DNA of 64,000 nucleotides from Escherichia coli (GTDB lineage Bacteria > Pseudomonadota > Gammaproteobacteria > Enterobacterales > Enterobacteriaceae). The DNA lies in NCBI RefSeq assembly GCF_030013205.1, contig NZ_CP122648.1; one strand, 5' to 3'. A model generated the notes under the pieces. It was not told the DNA's origin and did no database searches. It saw nothing but the letters and a program-made list of their open reading frames with translations. Made by a program: the position numbers and the translations under genes. Position 1 is the first letter of the stretch, and every line of letters starts with the position of its first letter. This document shows positions 1,569 through 39,595 of this stretch, piece by piece.

Positions 1569-2204
1569 TCTTCTGAATCACCGGGCGACAAAATATAACT
1601 GAGTTACAAATAAGTACCAGTCGAATGAGTATTGTATTAAGAATTTTTGAGTATCGCTGATACAACCAGAAAGCAATGCTAGCGCAATATTATAGGGCCA
1701 GCAATTGAGATTATTAGCAAAAGCATGTTAAGAATTAATCACCGAATTTATATATTAATTATAGTAAGGCAATGAGCTATTTTTGATAGTAAAAATAAAA
1801 CAAGTTGATTTGATATATTAAATGAAAAAATTAATCTTGATGACAGTCTGATTATTGGTGAAGTTTACAGGTCAGTTTTTTTCGCCAGCGGTTAAAGGAA
1901 TAGAATAGTCGTATAAAAAAGGGTGTTATGGAGCGTGTAAAACAATATCTTCACCTTAATGGCGATACAGTTGGCTGTGAGCCAGCAGGGGGCAAATCAC
2001 CTGCAAATAAACACGGCACATGCTGGCGCGCATATCGCGGATGCGTTCGAGGACAGAAGAACCGACAGGCGGATTCTTCAGCAGCTCATCGTCCATCACA
2101 AAACCTTTGACCAGGTATTTCTGAAGCCGATTGAATATTGAGCAGTAGAAAATATCTGGATTGACAGTATTACGAGGGGTTGGAGAACGTATGAAGAGGC
2201 AAAT

Positions 2205-2299
2205 TGGCGGAAGATCACAGGAGTCGAACCTGCCCGGGACCGCTGGCGGCCCCAACTGGATTTGAAGTCCAGCCGCCTCACCGGAGACGACGATCTTCC
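2205..2299 (-). tRNA. selC: tRNA-Sec (selenocysteine, anticodon UCA)
   Basis: Reverse complement reads GGAAGATCGTCGTCTCCGGTGAGGCGGCTGGACTTCAAATCCAGTTGGGGCCGCCAGCGGTCCCGGGCAGGTTCGACTCCTGTGATCTTCCGCCA, the 95-nt E. coli selC sequence with long variable arm and CCA end. Confidence 0.95.
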
Positions 2300-2563
2300 G
2301 CGCCTCGATTGCTACATGGAGGCGGGGCGCATTATAGCTACTTCCTTGAGTTTCTACATCCCCCAGATCAGTTTTTTCCGCCTAATACACGCAGCGTATT
2401 ATCACGAAAGCATTATAATTCATATAAAACCCATATTTTACAATGATATATGAGCGGAATTAACGCTACCACGATCACATAAAACAAGAATCATAAATTA
2501 ATAACCAGATATCGGAATATTCGCTCTCACAGGGATGGTTTACAAAATGCGTTATCGGTCTCA

Positions 2564-2568
2564 GCACC
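2564..2568. repeat. 5-bp target-site duplication GCACC, left copy, flanking IS2
   Basis: GCACC immediately outside the IS2 terminus at 2569; identical pentamer at 3900..3904. Confidence 0.85.
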
Positions 2569-2579
2569 TGGATTTGCCC

Positions 2580-3485
2580 CTATATTTCCAGACATCTGTT
2601 ATCACTTAACCCATTACAAGCCCGCTGCCGCAGATATTCCCGTGGCGAGCGATAACCCAGCGCACTATGCGGATGCCATTCGTTATAATGCTCGAACGCC
2701 TCTGCAAGGTTCTTTGCTGCCGTTAACCCGTCTGGTTTGGGCATGATACTGATGTAGTCACGCTTTATCGTTTTCACGAAGCTCTCTGCTATTCCGTTAC
2801 TCTCCGGACTCCGCACCGCCGTGTTCTTCGGTTCAAGTCCCAACATCCGGGCGAACTGGCGTGTTTCATTAGCCCGGTAGCATGAACCATTATCCGTCAG
2901 CCACTCCACTGGAGACGACGGAAGATCGTTGCCGAAGCGGCGTTCCACCGCTCCCAGCATGACGTCCTGTACTGTTTCACTGTTGAAGCCGCCGGTAGTC
3001 ACCGCCCAGTGCAGTGCCTCACGATCACAGCAGTCCAGCGCGAACGTGACACGCAGTCTCTCTCCGTTATCACAGCAGAACTCGAACCCGTCAGAGCACC
3101 ATCGCTGATTGCTTTCTTTCACGGCCACTCTGCCTGTATGTGCCCGTTTCGATGGCGGTACAGCAGGTTTTCGCTCAAGCAACAGCGCATTCTGGCGCAT
3201 GATCCGGTAAACACGTTTGGCATTGATCGCAGACATACCATCAAGTTCTGCCTGTCTGCGAAGCAGCGCCCATACCCGACGATAACCATACGTGGGCAGC
3301 TCTCCGATAACATGGTGTATACGGAGAAGCACATCCGTATCATCAGTGTGACGACTGCGGCGGCCATCCATCCAGTCATCGGTTCGTCTGAGAATGACGT
3401 GCAACTGCGCACGCGACACCCGGAGACAACGGCTGACTAAGCTTACTCCCCATCCCCGGGCAATAAGGGCGCGTGCGCTATCCAC
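2580..3485 (-). CDS. insD: IS2 transposase OrfB (InsD) frame, 301 aa; expressed as OrfAB fusion by -1 frameshift
   Basis: ORF track protein [30 protein letters not shown]... with DDE integrase-type core; recognised as IS2 InsD. Confidence 0.9.
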
Positions 3486-3808
3486 TTTTTTGCCCGTCCA
3501 TATTCAACGGCTTCTTTGAGGAGTTCATTTTCCATCGTTTTCTTGCCGAGCAGGCGCTGGAGTTCTTTAATCTGCTTCATGGCGGCAGCAAGTTCAGAGG
3601 CAGGAACAACCTGTTCTCCGGCGGCGACAGCAGTAAGACTTCCTTCCTGGTATTGCTTACGCCAGAGAAATAACTGGCTGGCTGCTACACCATGTTGCCG
3701 GGCAACGAGGGAGACCGTCATCCCCGGTTCAAAGCTCTGCTGAACAATTGCGATCTTTTCCTGTGTGGTACGCCGTCTGCGTTTCTCCGGCCCTAAGACA
3801 TCAATCAT
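3443..3808 (-). CDS. insC: IS2 OrfA (InsC) HTH protein, 121 aa
   Basis: [41 protein letters not shown]...; start placed at the internal Met of the 136-aa track ORF to give the 121-aa InsC. Confidence 0.85.
3485..3491 (-). promoter_or_regulatory. Programmed -1 ribosomal frameshift heptamer A-AAA-AAG at the insC/insD overlap
   Basis: Minus strand reads GCA AAA AAG TGG in the InsC frame; the -1 frame continues GTG GAT AGC... which is the InsD N-terminus (MDSARAL). Confidence 0.7.
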
Positions 3809-3899
3809 CTGTTCTCCAATGACTAGTCTAAAAACTAGTATTAAGACTATCACTTATTTAAGTGATACTGGTTGTCTGGAGATTCAGGGGGCCAGTCTA

Positions 3900-3904
3900 G
3901 CACC
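3900..3904. repeat. 5-bp target-site duplication GCACC, right copy, flanking IS2
   Basis: GCACC immediately after the IS2 end at 3899. Confidence 0.85.
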
Positions 3905-3927
3905 CCTATAGCATCAAGGAAAAGCAG

Positions 3928-5310
3928 ATGAAGAGTGAAGTGTTGTCCGTTAAAGAGAAAATTGGTTATGGCATGGGAGACGCCGCCAGCCACATTATTT
4001 TCGATAACGTAATGTTATATATGATGTTCTTTTATACCGATATTTTTGGCATTCCTGCCGGATTTGTCGGAACCATGTTTTTGGTCGCTCGTGCACTGGA
4101 TGCGATTTCCGATCCTTGCATGGGGTTGTTGGCCGATCGAACGCGCTCTCGCTGGGGTAAATTTCGTCCGTGGGTACTGTTTGGCGCACTGCCATTTGGG
4201 ATCGTCTGTGTACTGGCCTATAGCACGCCAGATCTCAGTATGAACGGCAAAATGATCTATGCAGCAATTACTTACACCCTACTTACCTTACTTTATACCG
4301 TCGTCAATATCCCTTACTGCGCATTGGGTGGTGTAATCACCAATGACCCGACTCAGCGTATCTCGCTGCAATCCTGGCGTTTTGTGCTGGCGACCGCGGG
4401 AGGCATGCTCTCTACTGTTCTGATGATGCCACTGGTTAATTTAATTGGCGGTGATAATAAACCACTCGGTTTCCAGGGCGGTATCGCGGTCCTTTCCGTG
4501 GTGGCATTCATGATGCTGGCATTTTGTTTCTTCACCACTAAAGAACGCGTTGAAGCACCACCTACAACGACGTCTATGCGGGAAGATTTACGTGATATCT
4601 GGCAAAACGACCAGTGGCGGATTGTCGGTTTACTAACCATTTTCAATATCCTGGCGGTGTGCGTACGCGGTGGGGCGATGATGTATTACGTCACATGGAT
4701 TTTGGGTACGCCGGAAGTGTTTGTCGCTTTTCTCACCACTTATTGCGTGGGTAACCTGATTGGTTCCGCACTGGCAAAACCGCTGACCGACTGGAAATGT
4801 AAAGTCACTATCTTCTGGTGGACGAACGCCCTGCTGGCAGTGATTAGCCTCGCGATGTTCTTTGTTCCTATGCAGGCCAGCATCACTATATTTGTCTTCA
4901 TCTTCGTGATTGGTGTGTTGCATCAACTGGTGACACCTATCCAGTGGGTAATGATGTCCGATACCGTCGACTACGGCGAGTGGTGCAATGGTAAACGCCT
5001 GACCGGGATCAGTTTTGCTGGCACGCTGTTTGTGCTCAAACTGGGGTTGGCCTTCGGCGGCGCTCTTATCGGCTGGATGCTGGCTTATGGCGGATATGAT
5101 GCGGCAGAAAAAGCGCAGAACAGCGCCACGATTAGCATCATTATTGCGCTATTCACGATTGTTCCGGCGATCTGTTATTTGCTGAGCGCGATTATCGCTA
5201 AACGCTACTACTCACTCACGACGCACAATCTGAAAACCGTTATGGAACAGCTGGCCCAGGGCAAACGCCGTTGCCAGCAACAATTCACCTCTCAAGAAGT
5301 GCAGAACTAA
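3928..5310 (+). CDS. yicJ: GPH-family (glycoside-pentoside-hexuronide:cation symporter) transporter YicJ, 460 aa
   Basis: 460-aa membrane protein MKSEVLSVKEKIGYGMGDAASHIIFDNVMLYMMFFYTDIFG...; directly upstream of yicI as in E. coli. Confidence 0.9.
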   Translation: MKSEVLSVKEKIGYGMGDAASHIIFDNVMLYMMFFYTDIFGIPAGFVGTMFLVARALDAISDPCMGLLADRTRSRWGKFRPWVLFGALPFGIVCVLAYSTPDLSMNGKMIYAAITYTLLTLLYTVVNIPYCALGGVITNDPTQRISLQSWRFVLATAGGMLSTVLMMPLVNLIGGDNKPLGFQGGIAVLSVVAFMMLAFCFFTTKERVEAPPTTTSMREDLRDIWQNDQWRIVGLLTIFNILAVCVRGGAMMYYVTWILGTPEVFVAFLTTYCVGNLIGSALAKPLTDWKCKVTIFWWTNALLAVISLAMFFVPMQASITIFVFIFVIGVLHQLVTPIQWVMMSDTVDYGEWCNGKRLTGISFAGTLFVLKLGLAFGGALIGWMLAYGGYDAAEKAQNSATISIIIALFTIVPAICYLLSAIIAKRYYSLTTHNLKTVMEQLAQGKRRCQQQFTSQEVQN

Positions 5311-5319
5311 GGAACGGCA

Positions 5320-7638
5320 ATGAAAATTAGCGACGGAAACTGGTTGATTCAACCTGGCCTCAATTTGATTCACCCGCTTCAGGTGTTCGAGGTTGAACAG
5401 CAGGGTAATGAAATGGTGGTCTATGCTGCCCCCCGTGATGTGCGTGAACGAACCTGGCAGCTTGATACGCCTTTATTTACGCTGCGCTTTTTCTCCCCAC
5501 AGGAAGGTATTGTCGGTGTACGGATTGAGCATTTTCAGGGGGCGCTGAATAACGGTCCTCATTATCCGCTCAATATTTTGCAGGACGTGAAGGTCACAAT
5601 CGAAAACACAGAACGTTACGCTGAGTTTAAAAGTGGCAACTTAAGCGCGCGTGTCAGCAAAGGTGAGTTCTGGTCACTGGATTTTCTGCGCAACGGCGAA
5701 CGTATTACCGGTAGTCAGGTGAAAAATAATGGCTACGTGCAGGACACGAATAATCAACGAAATTATATGTTTGAGCGGCTGGATCTTGGCGTTGGCGAAA
5801 CAGTTTACGGTCTGGGAGAGCGCTTTACTGCCCTGGTGCGCAATGGCCAGACGGTAGAGACCTGGAACCGGGACGGCGGCACAAGTACTGAACAGGCGTA
5901 TAAAAATATTCCGTTCTATATGACTAACCGTGGTTATGGGGTACTGGTCAATCATCCTCAATGCGTCTCTTTTGAAGTGGGATCGGAGAAAGTCTCCAAA
6001 GTGCAGTTCAGCGTTGAGAGTGAATATCTCGAATACTTTGTTATCGACGGCCCGACGCCGAAAGCGGTACTTGATCGTTATACCCGTTTTACTGGTCGTC
6101 CGGCGCTGCCGCCCGCGTGGTCCTTCGGCCTGTGGCTAACCACTTCATTTACCACCAACTACGACGAAGCGACGGTAAACAGCTTTATCGATGGTATGGC
6201 GGAACGCAATCTGCCACTGCATGTTTTCCACTTTGACTGTTTCTGGATGAAAGCCTTCCAGTGGTGCGATTTTGAGTGGGACCCGCTGACTTTCCCGGAC
6301 CCGGAAGGGATGATCCGCCGCCTGAAAGCGAAAGGGCTAAAAATCTGCGTCTGGATTAACCCCTATATCGGGCAAAAATCCCCTGTCTTTAAAGAGTTAC
6401 AAGAGAAAGGCTATTTACTCAAACGCCCGGACGGTTCGTTATGGCAGTGGGATAAATGGCAGCCAGGTCTGGCGATTTATGACTTTACCAATCCGGATGC
6501 CTGCAAATGGTACGCCGACAAACTGAAAGGTCTGGTCGCGATGGGCGTTGATTGCTTTAAGACCGACTTTGGCGAACGTATTCCAACCGATGTTCAGTGG
6601 TTTGACGGTTCCGATCCGCAGAAAATGCATAACCATTATGCGTACATCTACAACGAACTGGTGTGGAAAGTGCTCAAGGAAACCGTTGGCGAGGAAGAAG
6701 CCGTCTTGTTTGCTCGCTCGGCCTCCGTTGGTGCGCAGAAATTCCCGGTACACTGGGGTGGTGACTGTTACGCTAACTACGAATCAATGGCGGAAAGCCT
6801 GCGCGGTGGTTTGTCTATTGGCCTTTCAGGTTTTGGTTTCTGGAGCCACGATATCGGCGGCTTTGAGAATACCGCTCCGGCGCACGTTTACAAACGCTGG
6901 TGCGCGTTTGGTTTGCTCTCCAGCCATAGCCGTTTACATGGCAGCAAATCTTATCGTGTGCCGTGGGCCTACGATGATGAGTCCTGTGATGTGGTGCGCT
7001 TCTTCACGCAACTGAAATGCCGCATGATGCCGTATCTGTATCGTGAAGCTGCTCGTGCGAACGCGCGGGGTACGCCGATGATGCGGGCCATGATGATGGA
7101 GTTCCCGGACGATCCGGCTTGTGATTACCTTGACCGTCAATACATGTTAGGCGACAACGTGATGGTTGCTCCGGTGTTCACTGAAGCGGGCGATGTGCAG
7201 TTCTACTTGCCGGAAGGTCGCTGGACACATCTGTGGCACAACGATGAACTCGATGGTAGTCGCTGGCATAAACAGCAGCACAGCTTCCTGAGTCTGCCCG
7301 TTTATGTGCGTGATAACACCCTACTGGCGCTGGGCAACAACGAGCAACGTCCCGATTACGCGTGGCACGAAGGCACGGCATTCCAGCTCTTTAATCTACA
7401 AGACGGGCATGAAGCCATCTGTGAAGTGCCCGCTGCTGACGGTTCCGTTCTTTTCACCCTGAAAGCGGCGCGTACTGGCAACACGATTACTGTGACTGGT
7501 GCGGGCGAGGCGAAGAACTGGACACTGTGCTTGCGCAATGTTGTGAAAGTAAATGGTCTGCAAGGTGGTTCGCAGGCTGAAAGTGAGCAGGGACTGGTGG
7601 TGACTCCTCAAGGGAATGCGCTGACAATTACGTTGTAA
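5320..7638 (+). CDS. yicI: Alpha-xylosidase YicI (glycoside hydrolase family 31), 772 aa
   Basis: 772-aa ORF with GH31 hallmarks (WIDMNE-like region ...KTDFGERIP...); recognised as YicI. Confidence 0.9.
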
Positions 7639-7651
7639 TCTATTGAAGAAT

Positions 7652-7683
7652 GCCGGATACGAATGGTTTTGTGTCGTATCCGG
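7652..7683 (+). terminator. Stem-loop (GCCGGATACG ... CGTATCCGG) just after the yicI stop; REP-like or terminator hairpin
   Basis: Perfect 9-10 bp inverted repeat 14 bp after the yicI TAA; no strong U-tract. Confidence 0.45.
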
Positions 7684-7932
7684 TAAATAATCTCACATCT
7701 GGTAATAAATATTTCTTCCATCGTATTTGCGAGCATGATCACGATTATTCATCACGAAAATGTGATCTGTGCCGAAAAATATCTATTAACCGCCCCGTTT
7801 TGTTTTATACATGTCCGGACTACGGACAGATTTTAGTATTGTTGTGAAATTATTCTGCTTTATATTTACCCTCAGAGATGGCAACTGAAGCTCTTCCACA
7901 TGGGGCTTCTTAATCTGTGATAAGGGTAAAAA

Positions 7933-9486
7933 ATGCAAATGATTACCTCGCGACAAAACAGATTATTACGATTCCTTTTACCACGAAGGGAATATACGAC
8001 TATTGTTACGATTGCCGGCTATTTAAATGTTTCGGAAAAAACCATTCAACGTGATTTACGTTTACTTGAGCAATGGCTGGAACAATGGCGAATAACCGTT
8101 GAGAAGCGTGCTGGCGCAGGTGTGATGTTAGACTCGAAGAATATTACTGATTTGCTGCATCTTGATCATTTGTTGGGAGCAGAATGTGAAGAGATTGATG
8201 GTGTAATGAATAATGCCAGGCGCGTTAAAATAGCGTCGCAGTTATTAAGTGAAACACCGAATGAAACGTCGATCAGTAAATTGTCAGAGCGCTATTTTAT
8301 CAGTGGAGCCTCTATTGTTAATGACCTGAGAGTGATTGAGTCCTGGCTTGCGCCGTTGGGGTTATCATTGATCCGAAGCCCAAGTGGTACGCATATTGAA
8401 GGTAGTGAAGGGCAAGTCCGACAGGCAATGGCATTACTGATTAACGGCATTATTAACCATAATGAGCCGCAAGGTGTCGTGTATTCACGTCTGGATCCCG
8501 GAAGTTATAAAGCATTAGTCCATTATTTTGGAGAAGAAGAGGTGTTATTTGTCCAGTCATTGTTACTGGATATGGAAAATGAATTAAGTTGGTCTTTGGG
8601 AGAGCCTTATTACGTTAACATTTTTACTCACATCCTTATTATGATGTATCGCAACACGCACGGGAATGCGTTATCCAGAGAAGAAGATCAAACCAGGCAA
8701 TATGATGAAAATATCTTTAATGTTGCCAGTCAGATGATTCATAAGATAGAACAACGAATTGCACATACATTGCCCGATGATGAAGTCTGGTTTATTTATC
8801 AATATATCATTTCATCAGGTGTGGCGATTGATGGACAAAAAGATGTTAGCATTATTTCACATATGCAGGCCAGCAATGAAGCGCGTCTGATTACCTGGCG
8901 TTTAATTACGGTATTCAGTGACATCGTGGACTGCGATTTTAGTGAAGACAGCGCATTATATGATGGCTTGTTGGTTCATATTAAGCCGCTGATTAACCGA
9001 CTAAATTATCGCATTCATATCCGTAATCCATTGCTGGAAGATATTAAAGCAGAATTAGCGGATGTCTGGCGGTTGACGCAATATGTGGTGAATCAGGTAT
9101 TTAAAACCTGGGGTGAGAATGCAGTGAGCGAGGATGAAGTAGGTTACCTGACCGTTCATTTTCAGGCTGCGATGGAGCGGCAAATTGCCCGTAAACGTGT
9201 ATTACTGGTCTGTTCAACCGGAATCGGAACTTCGCATCTACTGAAAAGCCGTATTCTGCGAGCATTTCCTGAATGGACGATTGTTGATGTTATTTCAGCA
9301 GCGAATTTATCACAGGTTTTGCCTGACAATATCGAACTGATTATTTCGACCATTAATTTGCCTACAGTCACTATGCCGGTCGCTTATGTTACCGCTTTTT
9401 TTAATGATGCCGATATTAAGCGAGTCACTGAAATGGTGATTACGGAAAAATTACATCATGCGACATCTCGGGTCGTTGAAATTTAA
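7933..9486 (+). CDS. PRD-containing transcriptional activator (BglG/LicR/MtlR type) with N-terminal HTH and C-terminal PTS EIIB-like domain, 517 aa
   Basis: N-terminal winged-helix region (TIVTIAGYLNVSEKTIQRDLRLLEQ), central PRD-like regions, C-terminal LLVCSTGIGTSHLLKSRI (EIIB-Gat-like phosphorylatable Cys motif); heads a PTS operon. Confidence 0.7.
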   Translation: MQMITSRQNRLLRFLLPRREYTTIVTIAGYLNVSEKTIQRDLRLLEQWLEQWRITVEKRAGAGVMLDSKNITDLLHLDHLLGAECEEIDGVMNNARRVKIASQLLSETPNETSISKLSERYFISGASIVNDLRVIESWLAPLGLSLIRSPSGTHIEGSEGQVRQAMALLINGIINHNEPQGVVYSRLDPGSYKALVHYFGEEEVLFVQSLLLDMENELSWSLGEPYYVNIFTHILIMMYRNTHGNALSREEDQTRQYDENIFNVASQMIHKIEQRIAHTLPDDEVWFIYQYIISSGVAIDGQKDVSIISHMQASNEARLITWRLITVFSDIVDCDFSEDSALYDGLLVHIKPLINRLNYRIHIRNPLLEDIKAELADVWRLTQYVVNQVFKTWGENAVSEDEVGYLTVHFQAAMERQIARKRVLLVCSTGIGTSHLLKSRILRAFPEWTIVDVISAANLSQVLPDNIELIISTINLPTVTMPVAYVTAFFNDADIKRVTEMVITEKLHHATSRVVEI

Positions 9487-9512
9487 TGTCAGAATTTTAT
9501 GAGGTATGACGA

Positions 9513-9983
9513 ATGGACATAACAAAAATCCTGAATACGAATCGCGTTATTTTAGATATGCAAGCGACGAATAAAGCGGAGGCGATTGAAGAATTAACTA
9601 ATCTTCTCAAAAAAGATGGTGCGATCGATTGTCGGGAAACCTTTATTAAAGATGTCTGGCAGCGCGAAGCGGAAGGCTCGACTGGTTTTGAAAATCATAT
9701 TGCGATCCCGCATGGTAAATCTTCTGCGGTAATTAATACCACGCTGGCTATCGGGCGTACCCGGCAGGATATTCCCTGGGAAACACTGGATGGCAGTAGC
9801 GTACGCTGTATTATTTTATTTGCGGTACGTCTTGAAGATCAAAATACCACTCATATCCGTTTACTTTCCCAGGTCGCGGGCGCGCTTGCAGATGATGACA
9901 TCATAGCGCAATTGCTGGTTGAGACGAGCCCGCAAAAAATCATTGATCTCTTTAGTCAGTATGCACAATCCGATGTCTACTAA
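9513..9983 (+). CDS. PTS EIIA component, fructose/mannitol (type 2) family, 156 aa
   Basis: ...GFENHIAIPHGKSSAV... conserved phospho-His region of EIIA-2 domains. Confidence 0.75.
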   Translation: MDITKILNTNRVILDMQATNKAEAIEELTNLLKKDGAIDCRETFIKDVWQREAEGSTGFENHIAIPHGKSSAVINTTLAIGRTRQDIPWETLDGSSVRCIILFAVRLEDQNTTHIRLLSQVAGALADDDIIAQLLVETSPQKIIDLFSQYAQSDVY

Positions 9984-10000
9984 ATAACAGGGAGTATCTC

Positions 10001-10315
10001 ATGAATATTGTCTGTGTTGCCGCCTGCACGGCGGGTATTGCTCACACCTATATTGCTCGTGAAAAGTTAATTAAAGGGGCAAAAGCACTGGGCCACACCA
10101 TTAAAGTTGAAACCCAGGGAACCATTGGTACAGAAAACGAATTGCAGGCGGCAGAGATCTCTGCTGCTGACGTCGTGATTCTTGCTGTGGATGTGAAAAT
10201 AAAAGGAGAAGAACGTTTTACCAATAAACGCATTGTGCGAGTAAAGACAGAGATCGTCATTAAATCGCCCGTTCAATTTCTTGAAAAGGTCGAAAAATCA
10301 CTGGGAAATAAATGA
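10001..10315 (+). CDS. PTS EIIB component, fructose-like family, 104 aa
   Basis: MNIVCVAACTAGIAHTYIAREKL...: N-terminal CxxCxxGIAHT phospho-Cys motif typical of fructose-type EIIB. Confidence 0.75.
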   Translation: MNIVCVAACTAGIAHTYIAREKLIKGAKALGHTIKVETQGTIGTENELQAAEISAADVVILAVDVKIKGEERFTNKRIVRVKTEIVIKSPVQFLEKVEKSLGNK

Positions 10316-10339
10316 TCCTTATACTGGAGGGATCTTAAT

Positions 10340-11431
10340 ATGAAAGAAAATAAAATTCCGGTTTCACAGGAAATTAAAAAACATTTATTAACCGGCATCT
10401 CGTGGATGATACCCCTTATTGTGGCCGCCGGGATATGTATTGCGTTGGGGCAAGTTCTTGGCGGTACAGATGTTGGTGAAAAAACAGGAACAATCCCGTG
10501 GATGCTTAATCAGATTGGCGGCTGGGGAATGGGGCTGATTGTGCCGCTGATTAGCGCGGCAATTGCCTATTCTATTGCCGATCGTCCCGGATTTGCCCCG
10601 GGCCTGATTGTCGGCTTTCTCTGTGGGCAAATCCATACCGGATTTATTGGCGGTATGTTGGGTGGTTTCCTGGTGGGCTACACCATTTTGCTACTTAAAC
10701 GCTATATTCGCCTGCCGCAGTCGATGCAAGGACTCATGCCAATCATGGTGTTGCCGGTATTAAGCACCATTATCGGTGGGCTGTTAATGATGACGCTGAT
10801 TGGTAAACCCATCGCCTGGTTACAAGAAGCACTGATTCATTTGCTCGAGTCGATGCAGGGCGGATCGCGCTTCCTGATGGGGGCCATACTTGGCGCGATG
10901 GCAACCTTCGATTTCGGTGGTCCGGTCAACAAAACCATGTCGCTGTTTTCCGATGGCTTGCTGGTCAGTGGCGTCTACGGACCAGAAGCCGTGAAATTTG
11001 TCGGCTCAATCATCCCTCCGTTTGGCATCACACTTTCGTTCTTACTGACACGCCATAAATACACCCGTGCGGAGCGCGAGGCGCTGAAAGCCGCGTTTCC
11101 GATGGGGATCTGCATGATCACTGAAGGAGTCATTCCGATCGCCGCGCGTGACCTGTTGCGAGTAGTGGGATCTTGTGTGGTGGCATCGGCGGTCGCGGGC
11201 GGCTTAATCATGGTGTGGGGCGTGGAGAGTCCGGTTCCACATGGCGGCATGTTTGTTGTGCCTCTGTTCACCCATCCTCTGCTGTTTTGCCTGGCGCTGG
11301 GTATAGGCACGGTGATTTGTGGCGTGATGCTTTCACTCTGGAAGAAACCGGTAACGGAACGCGACGAAGAGTTTGACGAACTGAGCGATCAAAAGCTGAA
11401 AGATGAAGAGATCACTTTCACCCTCGAATAA
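10340..11431 (+). CDS. PTS EIIC permease component, fructose-like family, 363 aa
   Basis: Polytopic membrane protein immediately downstream of EIIA/EIIB; Gly-rich TM helices typical of EIIC-Fru. Confidence 0.7.
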   Translation: MKENKIPVSQEIKKHLLTGISWMIPLIVAAGICIALGQVLGGTDVGEKTGTIPWMLNQIGGWGMGLIVPLISAAIAYSIADRPGFAPGLIVGFLCGQIHTGFIGGMLGGFLVGYTILLLKRYIRLPQSMQGLMPIMVLPVLSTIIGGLLMMTLIGKPIAWLQEALIHLLESMQGGSRFLMGAILGAMATFDFGGPVNKTMSLFSDGLLVSGVYGPEAVKFVGSIIPPFGITLSFLLTRHKYTRAEREALKAAFPMGICMITEGVIPIAARDLLRVVGSCVVASAVAGGLIMVWGVESPVPHGGMFVVPLFTHPLLFCLALGIGTVICGVMLSLWKKPVTERDEEFDELSDQKLKDEEITFTLE

Positions 11432-11442
11432 CCGGAGGCCCT

Positions 11443-12294
11443 ATGTTTGCCGATATGAAAAGTATGGTGATGAAAGCCTGGCATGAACATTACGCCTTGC
11501 TGGCGATCAACTGTATGAATCTGGAAAGTGCTCGCGCAGCTATCCGCGTGGCGGAGAAGAATCGCGCTCCGATCATTCTCAATCTCTATCAGGGGCATCT
11601 GGCGCATTTTCCTGCACCCGTCGCGGCGGCAGTGGTTAAAACGCTCGCGGAATCTGCCTCAGTACCGGTCACTCTGGCGCTTGATCATGGCAAAAATCCG
11701 GACTGTATTCGTCAGGCGTTTCGTGCTGGTTTCAGCGGATTAATGATTGATGCTTCTGCTTTTCCCCTGGAGGAAAACGTGCGCCAGACCAAGGCGGTGG
11801 TGGAACTCGCCGCCAGCGCGCAGCTCTGCGTTGAAGGCGAACTGGGCCATCTGGCAGATGCGCCGCGTTACGACCAGGCCGCCAATGCAGACATGATGAC
11901 GCAACCCACTGATGTGGAAGCGTTTATCGCGCAGACAGGCATTGATCTACTGGCCGTCTCGGTAGGCACGGCGCACGGCATGTACGCGCCTGGTGTTGTA
12001 CCTGCTATTGATTTTCAGCGTCTGGCGGAGATTTTCCACTGCTCGAGCGTGCCTCTGGCATTACATGGTGGTAGCGGTACGCCGTTCGATCAGCTCCAGC
12101 TCTGTACGACTCTGGGGGTAGCAAAAATCAACGTGGGGGCGGCCATTTTTGAACGGGGGAAATCCGCGCTCCTGCATACCCTCTGTCACGATATATCCAT
12201 TGAACTGGTGGACGCGCTGAAAGCTATGGAACTGGCCTTCGAAGAAGCGATTACACCGTATTTACAGGCGAGCGGCTCTATCGGCAAAGCCTGA
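11443..12294 (+). CDS. Class II ketose-bisphosphate aldolase (GatY/KbaY/FbaA family), 283 aa
   Basis: Contains LDHG, GTAHG and HGGSG motifs of class II zinc aldolases. Confidence 0.75.
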   Translation: MFADMKSMVMKAWHEHYALLAINCMNLESARAAIRVAEKNRAPIILNLYQGHLAHFPAPVAAAVVKTLAESASVPVTLALDHGKNPDCIRQAFRAGFSGLMIDASAFPLEENVRQTKAVVELAASAQLCVEGELGHLADAPRYDQAANADMMTQPTDVEAFIAQTGIDLLAVSVGTAHGMYAPGVVPAIDFQRLAEIFHCSSVPLALHGGSGTPFDQLQLCTTLGVAKINVGAAIFERGKSALLHTLCHDISIELVDALKAMELAFEEAITPYLQASGSIGKA

Positions 12295-12374
12295 TTCATT
12301 TTCTGTCATGGCCTTTATGCCAGTGCAATAACGCACCGGCAGGGCGGACTACACGCTGAAACTGGAGATTTAAC

Positions 12375-13235
12375 ATGTTAGTTTCGATGAAAGAATTACT
12401 GCAACCTACCCGCCAGCACGGCTTTGCCATTGGCGCATTTAATGTGGCGGATAACTGTTTCCTTCGCGCAGTCGTGGATGAAGCAGAAGCGACAAATACT
12501 CCGGCGATTATTGCCATCCATCCCAGCGAACATGATTTTGTGGGCGATGCCTTTTTCGCTCACGTTCGCGAAATTACCCAGCGTAGTCCGGTCCCGTTTG
12601 TACTGCACCTCGATCATGGTGCCTCTGTAGAGCATGTTTTGCGTGCGATTCGCTGCGGATTTACCTCAGTAATGATCGACGGTTCGCTGCTGCCGTATGA
12701 AGAAAACGTGGCGCTGACCGCAGAAGTGGTTCGCCTCGCTCACGCGGTTGGAGTGTCGGTTGAGGGTGAACTGGGAACCATCGGACAAACAGGAACGTCG
12801 GTAGAAGGTGGTGTTTCACAAGTGACCTACACAGATCCGGCGCAGGCCGCCGATTTTATTGCTCGTACAGGTGCCGACACTCTGGCTGTGGCGATTGGTA
12901 CAGCGCATGGCATCTATCCAAAAGGGATGCAGCCGAAGCTGCAAATGGACATTTTGCGCGACATTGCCGGACGTATTGATATTCCGCTGGTGCTACACGG
13001 TGGTTCGGCAAACCCGGACGCGGAGATTGCTGAATCAGTTACGCTCGGCGTCGGCAAAATCAATATCTCCAGCGATATGAAATACGCCTATTTCCAGAAA
13101 GTGCGTGAAATTCTCGCTAAAGAGAGCTGGTGGGACCCGAACGTCATCTATCCGGATGCGATTAACGCGGCGCGGGAAGTCATTCGCCACAAAATGAAAC
13201 TGTTCGGTTCGCTCGGTAAAGCATCACTGTACTAA
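12375..13235 (+). CDS. Class II ketose-bisphosphate aldolase paralogue (GatY/KbaY family), 286 aa
   Basis: LHLDHG, GELG, GTAHG, LHGGS motifs; second tandem paralogue. Confidence 0.75.
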   Translation: MLVSMKELLQPTRQHGFAIGAFNVADNCFLRAVVDEAEATNTPAIIAIHPSEHDFVGDAFFAHVREITQRSPVPFVLHLDHGASVEHVLRAIRCGFTSVMIDGSLLPYEENVALTAEVVRLAHAVGVSVEGELGTIGQTGTSVEGGVSQVTYTDPAQAADFIARTGADTLAVAIGTAHGIYPKGMQPKLQMDILRDIAGRIDIPLVLHGGSANPDAEIAESVTLGVGKINISSDMKYAYFQKVREILAKESWWDPNVIYPDAINAAREVIRHKMKLFGSLGKASLY

Positions 13236-13240
13236 GCCAG

Positions 13241-13264
13241 AAGGGCGGGGTGACCCGCCTTTTA
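13241..13264 (+). terminator. GC-rich hairpin plus T-run between aldolase 2 and the kinase (possible intra-operon attenuator or partial terminator)
   Basis: GGGCGGG-GTGA-CCCGCCT followed by TTTT, 6 bp after the aldolase stop. Confidence 0.4.
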
Positions 13265-13282
13265 CGCAACAAGGAACGAGAT

Positions 13283-14215
13283 ATGCACTATCTGGGGTTG
13301 GATATTGGTGGGACCAAAATCGCCGCCGTCGTCATGGATGCGCATGGCTGGGAGATTCGCCGTTACCGCTGCCCGACGCAAAAGTCGACATATCAACAAT
13401 TTGTCTCATGCGTTGTGGCGTTTATCGAGCAGATTAGGCGGGACGTTCAACGACCGATGCTGACAGGGATCGCCTTACCCGGCAGTATCTCGCCACTCAC
13501 TGGCCTGATTAAAAACGCGAATATTCAGGTGATTAACGGTCATGCGTTACAGGCTGATTTGCAGCAATTGCTTGGGCAACCGGTGGTGATAGCCAATGAT
13601 GGTAACTGTTTCGCGCTATCAGAAGCTTGCGACGGTGCCGGGCAAGATTATGACGTGGTATTTGGTATTACGCTTGGTACGGGCTGCGGCGGTGGCATTG
13701 CCATCAAGCAACGACCGTTTATAGGGGCCTGGGGAAATGCTGCCGAATGCGGTCATATCACGTTGCCAGGCTATACGGAGCAGGAAGATGGTCCATCAGT
13801 CAGTTGCTATTGCGGCAAACACAACTGCGTGGAGTCGTTTGTTTCCGGCAGCGGTTTTAGTGAACGCTATCAACAGATGACTGGTAACTTGCTCACTCCT
13901 GCGGCGATTGTCACCCTGGCACAACGTGGTGATGCTTGTGCCATGCAGCAGGTGGCACGTTTTCGCCAACAGCTTGCCCGCACGCTGGCAACCATCGTTA
14001 ACGTTGTTGACCCTGGCGTGATTGTGATCGGCGGCGGGCTTTCGAATGTGGAACTGCTTATCACCGCTCTGAACGCAGAAGTTGCTCCACTGGTTTTCAC
14101 CGATCAATTCACCACTCCCATTGTAAAAGCACAGCACGGCGACAGTAGCGGAATGCGTGGCGCTGCCTGGCTTGCTATGCGCAACGGAGAAGCCAATGAA
14201 ACGTTCACAAATTAA
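13283..14215 (+). CDS. ROK-family sugar kinase, ~310 aa
   Basis: MHYLGLDIGGTKIAAV... N-terminal ATP motif and CYCGKHNCVESF zinc-binding ROK signature; start moved to the ATG with AAGGAA Shine-Dalgarno rather than the upstream GTG of the track ORF. Confidence 0.75.
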   Translation: MHYLGLDIGGTKIAAVVMDAHGWEIRRYRCPTQKSTYQQFVSCVVAFIEQIRRDVQRPMLTGIALPGSISPLTGLIKNANIQVINGHALQADLQQLLGQPVVIANDGNCFALSEACDGAGQDYDVVFGITLGTGCGGGIAIKQRPFIGAWGNAAECGHITLPGYTEQEDGPSVSCYCGKHNCVESFVSGSGFSERYQQMTGNLLTPAAIVTLAQRGDACAMQQVARFRQQLARTLATIVNVVDPGVIVIGGGLSNVELLITALNAEVAPLVFTDQFTTPIVKAQHGDSSGMRGAAWLAMRNGEANETFTN

Positions 14216-14876
14216 TTATGTTATTGATAAAGCACATGCCATTGCGCAGACCTTCCGCGTTTGTTTGCCAGAGTTCGCCTATTTTACGGTGGATGACTGG
14301 CTGCAGCTGGAACGGGATAACTGGCAAGAAGTGGTCGACTTACAGCTCGGTTGGGATATCACCGATTTTGGTCGTGGTGATTTCAACCAAACGGGACTAA
14401 CACTGCTAACGATGCGCAACGGCGCGCTGGGGTCGGCGGCATATCCAAAACCGTATGCTGAGAAAATGTTGCAGATCCAACAAGATCAGCAGACTCCTTG
14501 GCATTTTCACACCCACAAAATGGAAGATATCCTCAATCGGGGCGGTGGAGACTTATGCATGCAGTTGGCCTGGGCCAACGAAGCCAATCTCTGTGATGAT
14601 CAACGAGTCATTACCGTGAGTGTTGATGGTCAGCGGCGTACCATGAAACCTGGTGAAACGCTGGTGCTAAAGCCGGGGCAGGGCATTTGCCTGCCGCCGC
14701 GTCTGTATCATCGCTTCTGGGCGGAAAAAGCGTTTGTTCTCGGCTGGGAAATTTCGATGGTAAATGATGACCAACATGATAACCATTTTCTTGAGCCGGG
14801 AGGACGTTTTCCGGCGATAGAAGAAGATGAACCGGTGAAATGGTTATTGTGTAGTGAGTATGCTGTTTTGCGGTAA
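14196..14876 (+). CDS. Cupin-fold sugar isomerase, D-lyxose/D-mannose isomerase-like, ~226 aa
   Basis: Size and His-rich segment (WHFHTHKMEDI) resemble cupin-type D-lyxose isomerases; start taken at the ATG preceded by GGAGA; overlaps the kinase stop. Family assignment is from memory. Confidence 0.5.
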   Translation: MKRSQINYVIDKAHAIAQTFRVCLPEFAYFTVDDWLQLERDNWQEVVDLQLGWDITDFGRGDFNQTGLTLLTMRNGALGSAAYPKPYAEKMLQIQQDQQTPWHFHTHKMEDILNRGGGDLCMQLAWANEANLCDDQRVITVSVDGQRRTMKPGETLVLKPGQGICLPPRLYHRFWAEKAFVLGWEISMVNDDQHDNHFLEPGGRFPAIEEDEPVKWLLCSEYAVLR

Positions 14877-33384: not shown

Positions 33385-33843
33385 TTACTGACGACCAGAG
33401 TGACCAAAGCCGCCTTCACCGCGGTCGGTGGCGTCGAAATCTTCCACCAGATTAAATTCAGCCTGTACTACCGGAACAAAAATCATCTGGGCGATGCGTT
33501 CGCCAGGTTGAATGGTGAAGCTGTCCTGACCACGGTTCCACACGGAAATCATCAACTGGCCCTGATAGTCAGAATCGATCAATCCTACCAGGTTACCAAG
33601 CACGATACCGTGCTTATGTCCCAATCCGGAGCGCGGTAGCATCATTGCCGCCAGTGAAGGATCGGCAATATGAATCGCCAGCCCGGTCGGAACCAGCGTA
33701 GTGTCACCCGGAGCCAGTTCTACGGCGTCGTCGAGACAGGCACGCAGGTCAAGTCCGGCAGAGCCAGAGGTGGCATAAGTCGGGAGCGGAAATTCCTTCC
33801 CAACGCGCGGGTCCAGAATCTTAACGTCGATTTTTTTCATCAT
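33385..33843 (-). CDS. dut: dUTP diphosphatase, ~151-152 aa
   Basis: M(M)[35 protein letters not shown]...; first or second Met start. Confidence 0.93.
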
Positions 33844-35041
33844 AACGGGTCACGATCTCGTCGAGTAATAATTGGCCAAGGAGCTCTTTGCGCTCAAGCG
33901 GTAAGACTTTATCTCCGTCCTGCCAGAAAAGGTGTAATGCGTTGTTGTCGCTGTTAAATCCTTGAGTTGGCTGGGAAACATCGTTCGCGCAGATCAGATC
34001 AAGGTTTTTACGGATACGTTTTTGCCGGGCGTATTCTTCCACATTATTTGTTTCGGCGGCAAATCCAACGACGTAGGGTCGATGGTCTTTTAGTGCGGCA
34101 ACGCCTGCGACGATATCGGGGTTTTTAACCATTTTTATTGTTAATTCATCACCCTGCGTGGCCTGCTTTTTGATTTTCTCTGGGGCCACGGTAGCTGCGC
34201 GATAATCCGCCACGGCGGCACAGCCGATAAAAATATTTTGCTGCTGTACAGAAGCATTCACGGCCGCTTCCATTTCCAGCGCGGTCATCACATCAACACG
34301 TTTAACAAACGGTGGCGTCGGTAGTGAAACCGGACCTGATACCAGCGTGACGTTCGCGCCACGACGGGCAGCGGCGGCGGCGATAGCAAAACCCATCTTG
34401 CCTGAGCTGTGATTAGAGATATAACGCACCGGATCGAGCGGTTCACGCGTCGGGCCGGCGGTAATCATAATGTTCAGATGTTTCAGGTCGTTGACGGGCG
34501 AAAAATGCGCTACCGCCATATCAACAATGGTTAACGGATCGAGCATTCGCCCAGGGCCGATATCACCACAAGCCTGACTGCCACTGTCTGGCCCCCAGAT
34601 GAGCAAACCACGGGAAGCAAGCACCTCTAAATTATGCTGCGTGGCAGCGGCACGGTACATCTGCTGGTTCATGGCGGGGAGCACGGCTACAGGCGCAGGT
34701 GTGGCCAGACAAATCGTCGATACCAGATCATTCGCCATTCCGGCAGCAACACGGGCAATCAAATCTGCCGTGGCAGGGGCGAGAATCACTAAATCAGCCC
34801 ATTTACCCAGCTCAATATGGCCCATAGCGGCTTCGGCTGCCGGGTCCAGCAGACTGTCGGAAACGGGATAACCAGAAACCGCCTGCAAGCTAAGTGGGGT
34901 GATAAAGGCTTTTGCCGCTTCGGTCATGGCTACGCGGACGTCGGCCCCGCGATCGCGCAAACGACGCACCAGTTCAGGGGTTTTATAGGCAGCAATACCG
35001 CCGCTGACGCCGAGAACGATTTTTTTACCGGCCAGGCTCAT
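33821..35041 (-). CDS. coaBC: Bifunctional phosphopantothenoylcysteine decarboxylase/synthetase CoaBC (Dfp), 406 aa
   Basis: [37 protein letters not shown]...; start at the internal Met of the 430-aa track ORF. Confidence 0.93.
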
Positions 35042-39232: not shown

Positions 39233-39583
39233 AGTAAATAGCTGACTTATGGATGTGCTGGGGATTCTATGTATTTAGCTGTGGCTTTACCATTACTTTT
39301 CCCGTTTTTGACTTAAATAGCAATTTACCCGCCAATTCTTGCTGAACATCTATACTTTTTTTGTATTTTTATGCGATTCATTGATTTCTGCAGTACGTGC
39401 AGGAAGGAATCGCAGAGCAACAGTGAAAGAATATGGTTGCTAATGATTTTATTTGATTGATTTCTTTATTGAAAATCAACAATGTGCTTAAAAATCATTC
39501 GGGTCGGATTGCCGCGAAAGAAGTGATACACTAGCGCGTCAATATCAGTGCGGTATCAGTATTCAGGTAGCTGTTGAGCCTGG

Positions 39584-39595
39584 GGCGGTAGCGTG
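39584..39595 (+). promoter_or_regulatory. ops element (GGCGGTAGCGTG) within the JUMPstart leader of the waaQ operon; RfaH recruitment site
   Basis: Exact GGCGGTAGCGTG ~50 bp upstream of the waaQ start in the waaA-waaQ divergent region. Confidence 0.85.

Follow-up and report, generated by a model that had tools for sequence, protein, structure and literature searches.

What lies between selC and yicJ in this stretch of Escherichia coli DNA, how it arrived there, and what it does to the genes on either side are the questions that the locus raises. A first-pass annotation of the window (the whole 64,000-nt stretch of DNA that was analysed, from contig NZ_CP122648.1 of assembly GCF_030013205.1) had placed there a complete 1331-bp IS2 with intact insC and insD and the A6G frameshift heptamer, while allowing that the termini or the length might be wrong and that the element might be a different member of the IS3 family. 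We aligned the element base by base to IS2A of E. coli K-12 MG1655 (NC_000913.3, 381260-382590, annotated as 'insertion sequence:IS2A'). The two are of equal length and identical at 1327 of 1331 positions (99.7%). The four substitutions comprise A32G in IRL, two synonymous changes in insD and P85S, the single change in the InsD protein; the InsC protein is that of K-12 InsC1, with no residue changed. Both products were recognised by models specific to IS2: NCBIfam NF006928 ('IS2 repressor TnpA') matched InsC with 275.8 bits (cut-off 229), and NF006918 ('IS2 transposase TnpB') matched InsD with 724.1 bits (cut-off 597). In addition, InsD matched the Pfam families rve (E=2.9e-18), rve_3 (E=3.4e-18) and HTH_21 (E=2.1e-10), and it is this domain-level match that assigns a predicted DDE catalytic domain to OrfB. 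The insD frame overlaps that of insC in the -1 frame, the ORF containing insC being listed as 3853/3808->3443, and in the matching genomes RefSeq annotates the two together as a two-piece CDS, 'IS3-like element IS2 family transposase, programmed frameshift' (2580..3808). The coordinates of these and the other features discussed here are collected in the table.

Table. Features of the selC-yicJI region in the window, in order of position.
Feature	Position	Strand	Basis or detail
sigma-24 promoter/TSS counterpart for yicJI	1823..1857	+	-10 TCTGA 1847-1851; TSS G 1857
selC (tRNA-Sec)	2205..2299	-	ARAGORN; Rfam RF01852, 83.8 bits
Probable selC core promoter	2331..2359	-	-10 TATAAT 2336->2331, G+C-rich discriminator next to it; sequence match only
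GCACC, left copy of target-site duplication	2564..2568	.	Direct reading and script indexing
IS2, complete, IS3 family	2569..3899	-	1331 bp; base-by-base alignment to K-12 IS2A
IRR, 41 bp, donor end, low-coordinate side facing selC	2569..2609	-	Identical to the IRR of PMC3299598
insD / orfB, DDE (rve) catalytic domain (predicted), 301 aa	2580..3485	-	NCBIfam 'IS2 transposase TnpB', Pfam
insC / orfA, IS2 repressor/DNA-binding protein, 121 aa	3443..3808	-	NCBIfam 'IS2 repressor TnpA'
A6G slippery heptamer AAAAAAG	3485..3491 (3491->3485)	-	IS positions 409-415; predicted -1 frameshift site for OrfAB (InsCD)
IRL, 42 bp, recipient end, high-coordinate side adjoining yicJ	3858..3899	-	IRL of PMC3299598 save A32G
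GCACC, right copy of target-site duplication	3900..3904	.	Direct reading and script indexing
Residual native DNA upstream of yicJ, CCTATAGCATCAAGGAAAAGCAG	3905..3927	+	Direct reading; identical in K-12
yicJ, GPH-family transporter	3928-5310	+	Intact ORF
yicI, alpha-xylosidase	5320-7638	+	Intact ORF

The ends of the element were compared with the published IS2 termini, a 41-bp IRR and a 42-bp IRL (Lewis et al., 2012; PMC3299598). The IRR of the window copy, TTAAGTGATAACAGATGTCTGGAAATATAGGGGCAAATCCA (2609->2569, minus strand), agrees with the published sequence throughout and, by this match, contributes the half of the minicircle junction promoter that points outward. Given the 17-bp spacer in the literature, we infer that the -35 element of this promoter within IRR is TGGAAA (2590->2585). 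The IRL reads TAGACTGGCCCCCTGAATCTCCAGACAACCA[G]TATCACTTAA (3899->3858), and the single substitution in it, A32G, falls at window position 3868; the predicted weak inward promoter P_IRL sits just inside this end. Exactly 1331 bp (2569-3899) lie between two copies of GCACC, which were found where perfect direct repeats had been proposed and of which the empty site has one. With insCD running leftwards on the minus strand, the transposase does read away from yicJ, as had been stated. There is no second IS2 end or copy within the window. K-12 IS2A is alike in its length of 1331 bp, its 41- and 42-bp inverted repeats, the overlap of orfA with orfB and the A6G frameshift window; it too is flanked by a 5-bp target duplication, although of a different sequence (ATTAC, as opposed to GCACC), and it differs from the window copy in the four substitutions and in the site of insertion. 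All six of the sequence-level hallmarks by which IS2 is recognised were found, namely length and identity, inverted repeats, reading frames, A6G, rve and the 5-bp duplication, so that every defining IS2 feature that can be checked in silico is present. The possibility of wrong termini or of another IS3-family member is answered in the same way, since the inverted repeats, the length of 1331 bp and the IS2-specific models all fit IS2. We conclude that the element is IS2 itself rather than a relative, and that its anatomy shows no departure from the family.

How IS2 moves has been established for the element generally. A weak promoter just inside IRL, P_IRL, is repressed by OrfA; the transposase, OrfAB, is made by -1 frameshifting at A6G; and transposition proceeds through a figure-of-eight and then a minicircle, in which the abutted IRR and IRL form a strong junction promoter with an obligatory 17-bp spacer (PMC3299598). 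Carried over to the window copy, this scheme predicts that P_IRL would weakly transcribe orfA (insC) and that a -1 ribosomal frameshift at the A6G heptamer would yield OrfAB. The 3' end of IRR would then be cut and joined beside IRL to give the figure-of-eight, which would be resolved to the minicircle, and the abutted ends would create the strong junction promoter. Integration of the minicircle through staggered cuts would leave a 5-bp duplication, here GCACC; a duplication of this kind is the expected footprint of IS2 integration.

If the element arrived by transposition, related genomes should hold the uninterrupted site. We rebuilt that site by joining positions 2300-2568 to 3905-4200 with one GCACC kept, and used the resulting 565 bp as a query. 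Of 5426 complete E. coli genomes, 5408 contain the rebuilt site as one uninterrupted match, in many cases at 100% identity, and K-12 also has the empty site with a single GCACC. In about eight further genomes, among the matches listed, the query matched in two places, and in these few the selC-yicJ spacer may be interrupted as well. Matches across both IS2 junctions were found in only 7 of the 5426 genomes, all from pigs: six Belgian porcine ETEC (ETEC1748, 4067, 4069, 4070, 4071 and 4079) and the Korean swine strain K_EC180. One of them, ETEC4079, shows no mismatches to the window and two indels over 49 kb. The 24-kb right flank is 100.0% identical in at least eight further strains from pigs or wild boar, with bit scores that differ from that of the self-match by no more than about 30; these relatives are ETEC4068, 4075, 1701, 6333 and 6334, the O139:H1 strains W13-16 and P15-25, and EC556-type strains (98% covered). 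None of these flank-identical strains is among the seven carriers, and the empty site was read directly in ETEC4068 only. The search for an empty site in related isolates, which the first-pass annotation had suggested, was thus carried out on genome sequences, and this sister strain matched the rebuilt site with 0 mismatches over 408 bp. Because the flanks are the same as those of IS2-free sisters and the empty site holds a single copy of GCACC, the insertion appears to be a transposition inside one porcine E. coli clone.

We considered whether the feature might be something other than a genuine IS2 insertion. Misassembly at IS copies is a classic problem of short-read data, although we found no specific support for this here, and the same junctions recur in all seven complete assemblies, which are independent and come from two countries; moreover, the perfect 5-bp duplication agrees with the single-copy empty site. 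A different IS3-family element is at odds with the 99.7% identity to IS2A and with the IS2-specific NCBIfam matches, and import by recombination is at odds with flanks identical to those of IS2-free sisters. Identity, junctions and flanks rule out these three candidates, and an origin other than IS2 transposition is extremely improbable.

Copies of the same IS2 variant, 100% identical, are present at other loci in the same clone. In K_EC180 a further IS2 copy, at position 3041548, is flanked by another 5-bp duplication, GAGAT, and in ETEC1701 an identical copy lies within a fimbrial usher gene. We infer from these multiple identical copies that the variant with A32G and P85S is transposition-proficient, and the donor was probably a resident copy of this repeatedly moving variant. 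The suggestion that the element is probably still mobile finds support in the identical copies with differing duplications elsewhere in the clone. That the insertion is relatively recent is likewise upheld, both by the presence of the element in 7 of 5426 genomes and by the empty site in a near-identical sister. Measured against the diversity of E. coli as a whole it would be recent, yet there would have been time for it to reach both Europe and Asia. In all, we hold it very probable that a complete, apparently functional IS2 transposed into the selC-yicJ spacer of one porcine clone.

On the yicJ side, counting confirmed that 28 bp (3900-3927) separate the end of IS2 from the yicJ ATG at 3928; discounting the duplication leaves 23. 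The Shine-Dalgarno sequence AAGGAA (3916-3921) is inside the residual 23 bp, and the ribosome-binding site of yicJ would stay in place after the insertion. Judged by its length, the 23-28 bp that is left would have no room for a leader together with a -35/-10 promoter, and the native upstream promoter DNA is pushed away by 1336 bp. This geometry, with so short a residue, sustains the earlier view that the native yicJI promoter is probably displaced.

The same annotation had described the DNA between selC and yicJ as a divergent control region split by the element. The spacer is split, and it has been reported as a region that binds RNAP(sigma-70) and is bound by H-NS, with promoter hexamers that are computational only (Shimada et al., 2014; PMC3946193). 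The picture was incomplete, however, in that the mapped sigma-24 TSS sits outside the 270-bp spacer. This is the sole experimentally mapped yicJI TSS that we found, at K-12 position 3836664 on the reverse strand (Reg-Seq source data; PMC7567609), and collinear alignment places it at position 1857 of the window, with a good sigma-E -10 (TCTGA) ahead of it. Transcription from this promoter, which is located beyond selC, runs through the tRNA gene in the antisense direction, and the distance from the TSS to the yicJ ATG, 735 nt in K-12, is 2071 nt in the window. Among published surveys, yicJ is included with the active sigma-E promoters, with no sequence printed (Rhodius, 2011); the main text of an earlier study has no mention of yicJ (Rhodius, 2005). 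The -35 core of the sigma-24 promoter is GAAC in K-12 and GAAA in the lineage of the window, including the IS2-free sister, and an exact 60-mer with the GAAA-type promoter is present in 340 of 5426 genomes. Even before the insertion, the sigma-24 route to yicJI may have been a weak one.

The most likely effect of the insertion, and the one towards which we lean, would be polar, with yicJI expression lowered or lost. A transcript that started at a promoter further upstream could reach yicJ only by running through 1.3 kb of IS2, which would go untranslated and be read antisense to insCD. The end that faces yicJ is IRL, for which no outward promoter is documented, and as the native residue would be too short for a promoter, reduced expression is favoured. 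The insertion of IS2 in the gal leader is a classical polar insertion, and a long untranslated IS is expected to exert a polar effect. In such classical cases the element likewise lies between the promoter and the first gene, and polarity would be expected here by analogy.

Conversely, IS2 could activate yicJI from a promoter reading outward from IRL or from a hybrid of IS2 and flank, in which case expression would be constitutive and free of native control. IS2 is known to switch on ampC, acrEF and neoR, and the ampC and acrEF insertions resemble the present one in being intergenic, shortly upstream of a start codon, and bordered by a 5-bp duplication (PMC9330008, PMC9783932). They differ in the end that is involved: the documented route uses an outward -35 in IRR, which is where the outward -35 of the IS3 family resides, and not in IRL (reviewed in PMC9330008), whereas in the window yicJ faces IRL. 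A consensus scan for promoters and terminators over positions 2150-4050 returned nothing, but was insensitive: the probable selC promoter itself went undetected. The best outward candidate in a rough PWM scan at the IRL end was TTAAGA-17-GATACT (3841-3869, plus strand), whose score of 6.7 is to be read against the best scores per random 200 nt of the genome (median 5.8, 90th percentile 8.3). Weak promoter-like hexamers inside IRL do point toward yicJ, and a background-level candidate within IRL may be counted in favour of activation, but in this rough scan no promoter above genomic background was found from IRL toward yicJ. Nor was a fusion promoter, defined by a -35 that points out of the IS end and a -10 in the flank, 16-18 bp apart and upstream of the affected gene, found on the yicJ side; the best candidate across the junction, the -35 TTCAGG with the -10 TATAGC (3907-3912), would place the transcription start within the Shine-Dalgarno sequence. 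We regard activation as unlikely.

It is also possible, although we would not expect it, that the insertion is neutral, with yicJI being poorly expressed or silenced by H-NS most of the time and IS2 a hitchhiking marker of the clone. The H-NS binding reported in the yicJ-selC spacer (PMC3946193) is consistent with this, as is a sigma-24 -35 core that had already changed in the lineage, IS2-free sisters included. Furthermore, the yicJ and yicI ORFs are intact in the carriers, with no carrier-specific decay, and the persistence of the insertion across two continents, together with the intact ORFs, fits neutrality equally well. Yet fitness defects are attributed to a delta-yicJI mutant of another strain (Reperant, 2011, as cited in PMC11157272), and, with IS2 only 23 bp before the start codon, every possible promoter is taken away, so that some change in transcription would be hard to avoid should the operon ever be expressed. 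Polar loss of yicJI expression is favoured over neutrality, which comes next, and activation is the least likely of the three readings.

Relaxed selection on yicJI in the carriers was considered and rejected, on counts too small for interpretation. The YicI substitution A762T (relative to ETEC4068) is not confined to carriers, T762 also being found in the non-carrier W13-16, and the YicJ substitution M321I is private to one genome.

We think it hardly likely that a porcine ETEC subclone gained an adaptive regulatory mutation with this insertion. Should it be so, yicJI would have been cut off from the sigma-24/H-NS region, the use of xyloglucan oligosaccharides (isoprimeverose) would be rewired in the pig gut, and persistence in both Belgium and Korea would reflect selection and not drift. 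Co-transcription with yicJI, if it occurs, would extend the rewiring to the frz-like sugar operon downstream.

Insertion of IS elements in promoter regions is a textbook class of mutation. The event described here is of an already known kind, involving no new element or mechanism, and seven RefSeq genomes already have the insertion in their annotation. Its practical value is limited to that of a subclone marker and of a natural experiment on the yicJI promoter region. As a marker, it would cleanly identify one pig-associated ETEC subclone (O139:H1-related background). As an experiment, the carriers ETEC4079 and ETEC1748 and the sisters ETEC4068 and ETEC4075 would form a natural near-isogenic pair for yicJI expression, the comparison of which could clarify the poorly defined architecture of the yicJI promoter.

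The first-pass annotation had held effects on both yicJI and selC to be plausible. The geometry bears out the part that concerns yicJI; for selC an effect is unlikely, with the promoter more than 200 bp off. The distance given for the other end of the element was accurate: selC has its 5' end at 2299, and 270 bp upstream of this, on the minus strand that both share, comes the end of IS2 (2569). The -10, discriminator and -35 of the probable selC core promoter are identical to those of K-12 and separated from the IS2 end by 210-233 bp, and it is because this promoter is unaltered and so distant that we consider IS2 unlikely to affect selC. An altered selC expression could in principle arise by read-through from insCD, from a fusion promoter at IRR, or through loss of upstream activating DNA. 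In keeping with the first two, insCD shares its strand with selC, IRR with its outward -35 faces selC, and the consensus scan, insensitive as it was, detected no terminator-like site between insCD and selC. However, with the -35 at its predicted position, the flank hexamer at the 17-bp position is GTGCTG (2567->2562), which is no -10, and no fusion promoter was found at the IRR junction toward selC. In addition, P_IRL is weak and repressed by OrfA (PMC3299598). Together with the unchanged -10 and -35, this leaves an effect on selC only a small chance of being real. Read-through from P_IRL into selC is possible, and would merely add a 5' leader to the transcript. A 5' leader added to a tRNA is removed by RNase P.

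The sigma-24 promoter and transcription start site assigned to yicJI in K-12 have a counterpart in the window, which lies on the far side of selC and reads antisense through this tRNA-Sec gene. The -35 core of the promoter is GAAA in the window (A1827), as opposed to the conserved GAAC of K-12. The GAAA allele is also found in the IS2-free sister strain ETEC4068, and an exact 60-mer carrying it was present in 340 of the 5426 complete E. coli genomes searched. Within yicJ itself, a G to A change at position 4890 (+), in codon 321, results in the substitution M321I in YicJ. This substitution is absent from K-12, from the non-carrier ETEC4068 and from ETEC1748, which carries IS2 between selC and yicJ, and is therefore private to the ETEC4079-type genome; a single change of this kind does not suffice as evidence of relaxed selection.

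Features in the window and in the IS2 carrier K_EC180
Feature	Position	Strand	Remarks
Sigma-24 promoter/TSS counterpart, assigned to yicJI in K-12	1823-1857	+	K-12 3836664, reverse strand
rhuM-family gene fragment	1998-2126	-	RefSeq annotation; between setC and selC
Perfect 11-bp hairpin, GCCGGATACGA...TCGTATCCGGT	7652-7684	+	Immediately 3' of yicI stop codon
Seven-gene sugar cluster	7933-14876	+	Between yicI and yicH
coaBC/dut junction	~33821-35041	-	
JUMPstart RNA element	39557-39595	+	RF01707, 55.2 bits; upstream of rfaQ, LPS core operon
Second IS2 copy, 100% identical	K_EC180 3041548-3042878 (L005, the extracted locus, 3001-4331)		

The second IS2 copy of K_EC180 is flanked by a 5-bp duplication with its own sequence, GAGAT, and sits in a degraded island together with IS1, a DUF3987 pseudogene and inovirus Gp2-like genes. 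This is plausibly a donor-type copy for the selC-yicJ insertion. On the other side of selC, the rhuM-family fragment looks like what remains of an island that was once associated with selC. The yicT pseudogene occupies this position in K-12, whereas in the close relative W13-16 (O139:H1) a tyrosine recombinase adjoins selC instead (4395-5501 of the extracted locus, L010).

Downstream of yicI, the sugar cluster codes for a BglG-type antiterminator, PTS components IIA, IIB and IIC, two aldolases, a ROK protein and a lyxose/mannose isomerase. K-12 lacks the cluster, and its yicH directly follows yicI. In gene content and size, the cluster resembles the ExPEC 'frz' operon (PMC12928451). In the gap between yicI and the BglG gene, a single weak terminator-like hairpin (7812-7828) was the only terminator-like element found. 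No T-tract follows the 11-bp hairpin next to the yicI stop codon, which may be a REP-like or mRNA-stabilising stem.

Two indels, of which the first lies near position 33836, are the only differences between the window and the RefSeq sequence of ETEC4079. In the window coaBC is an intact open reading frame of the expected 406 codons, and in ETEC4079 it is annotated by RefSeq as a pseudogene lacking the C-terminus; this discrepancy probably stems from an assembly or consensus error in one sequence or the other. The JUMPstart element occupies its expected, ordinary position.
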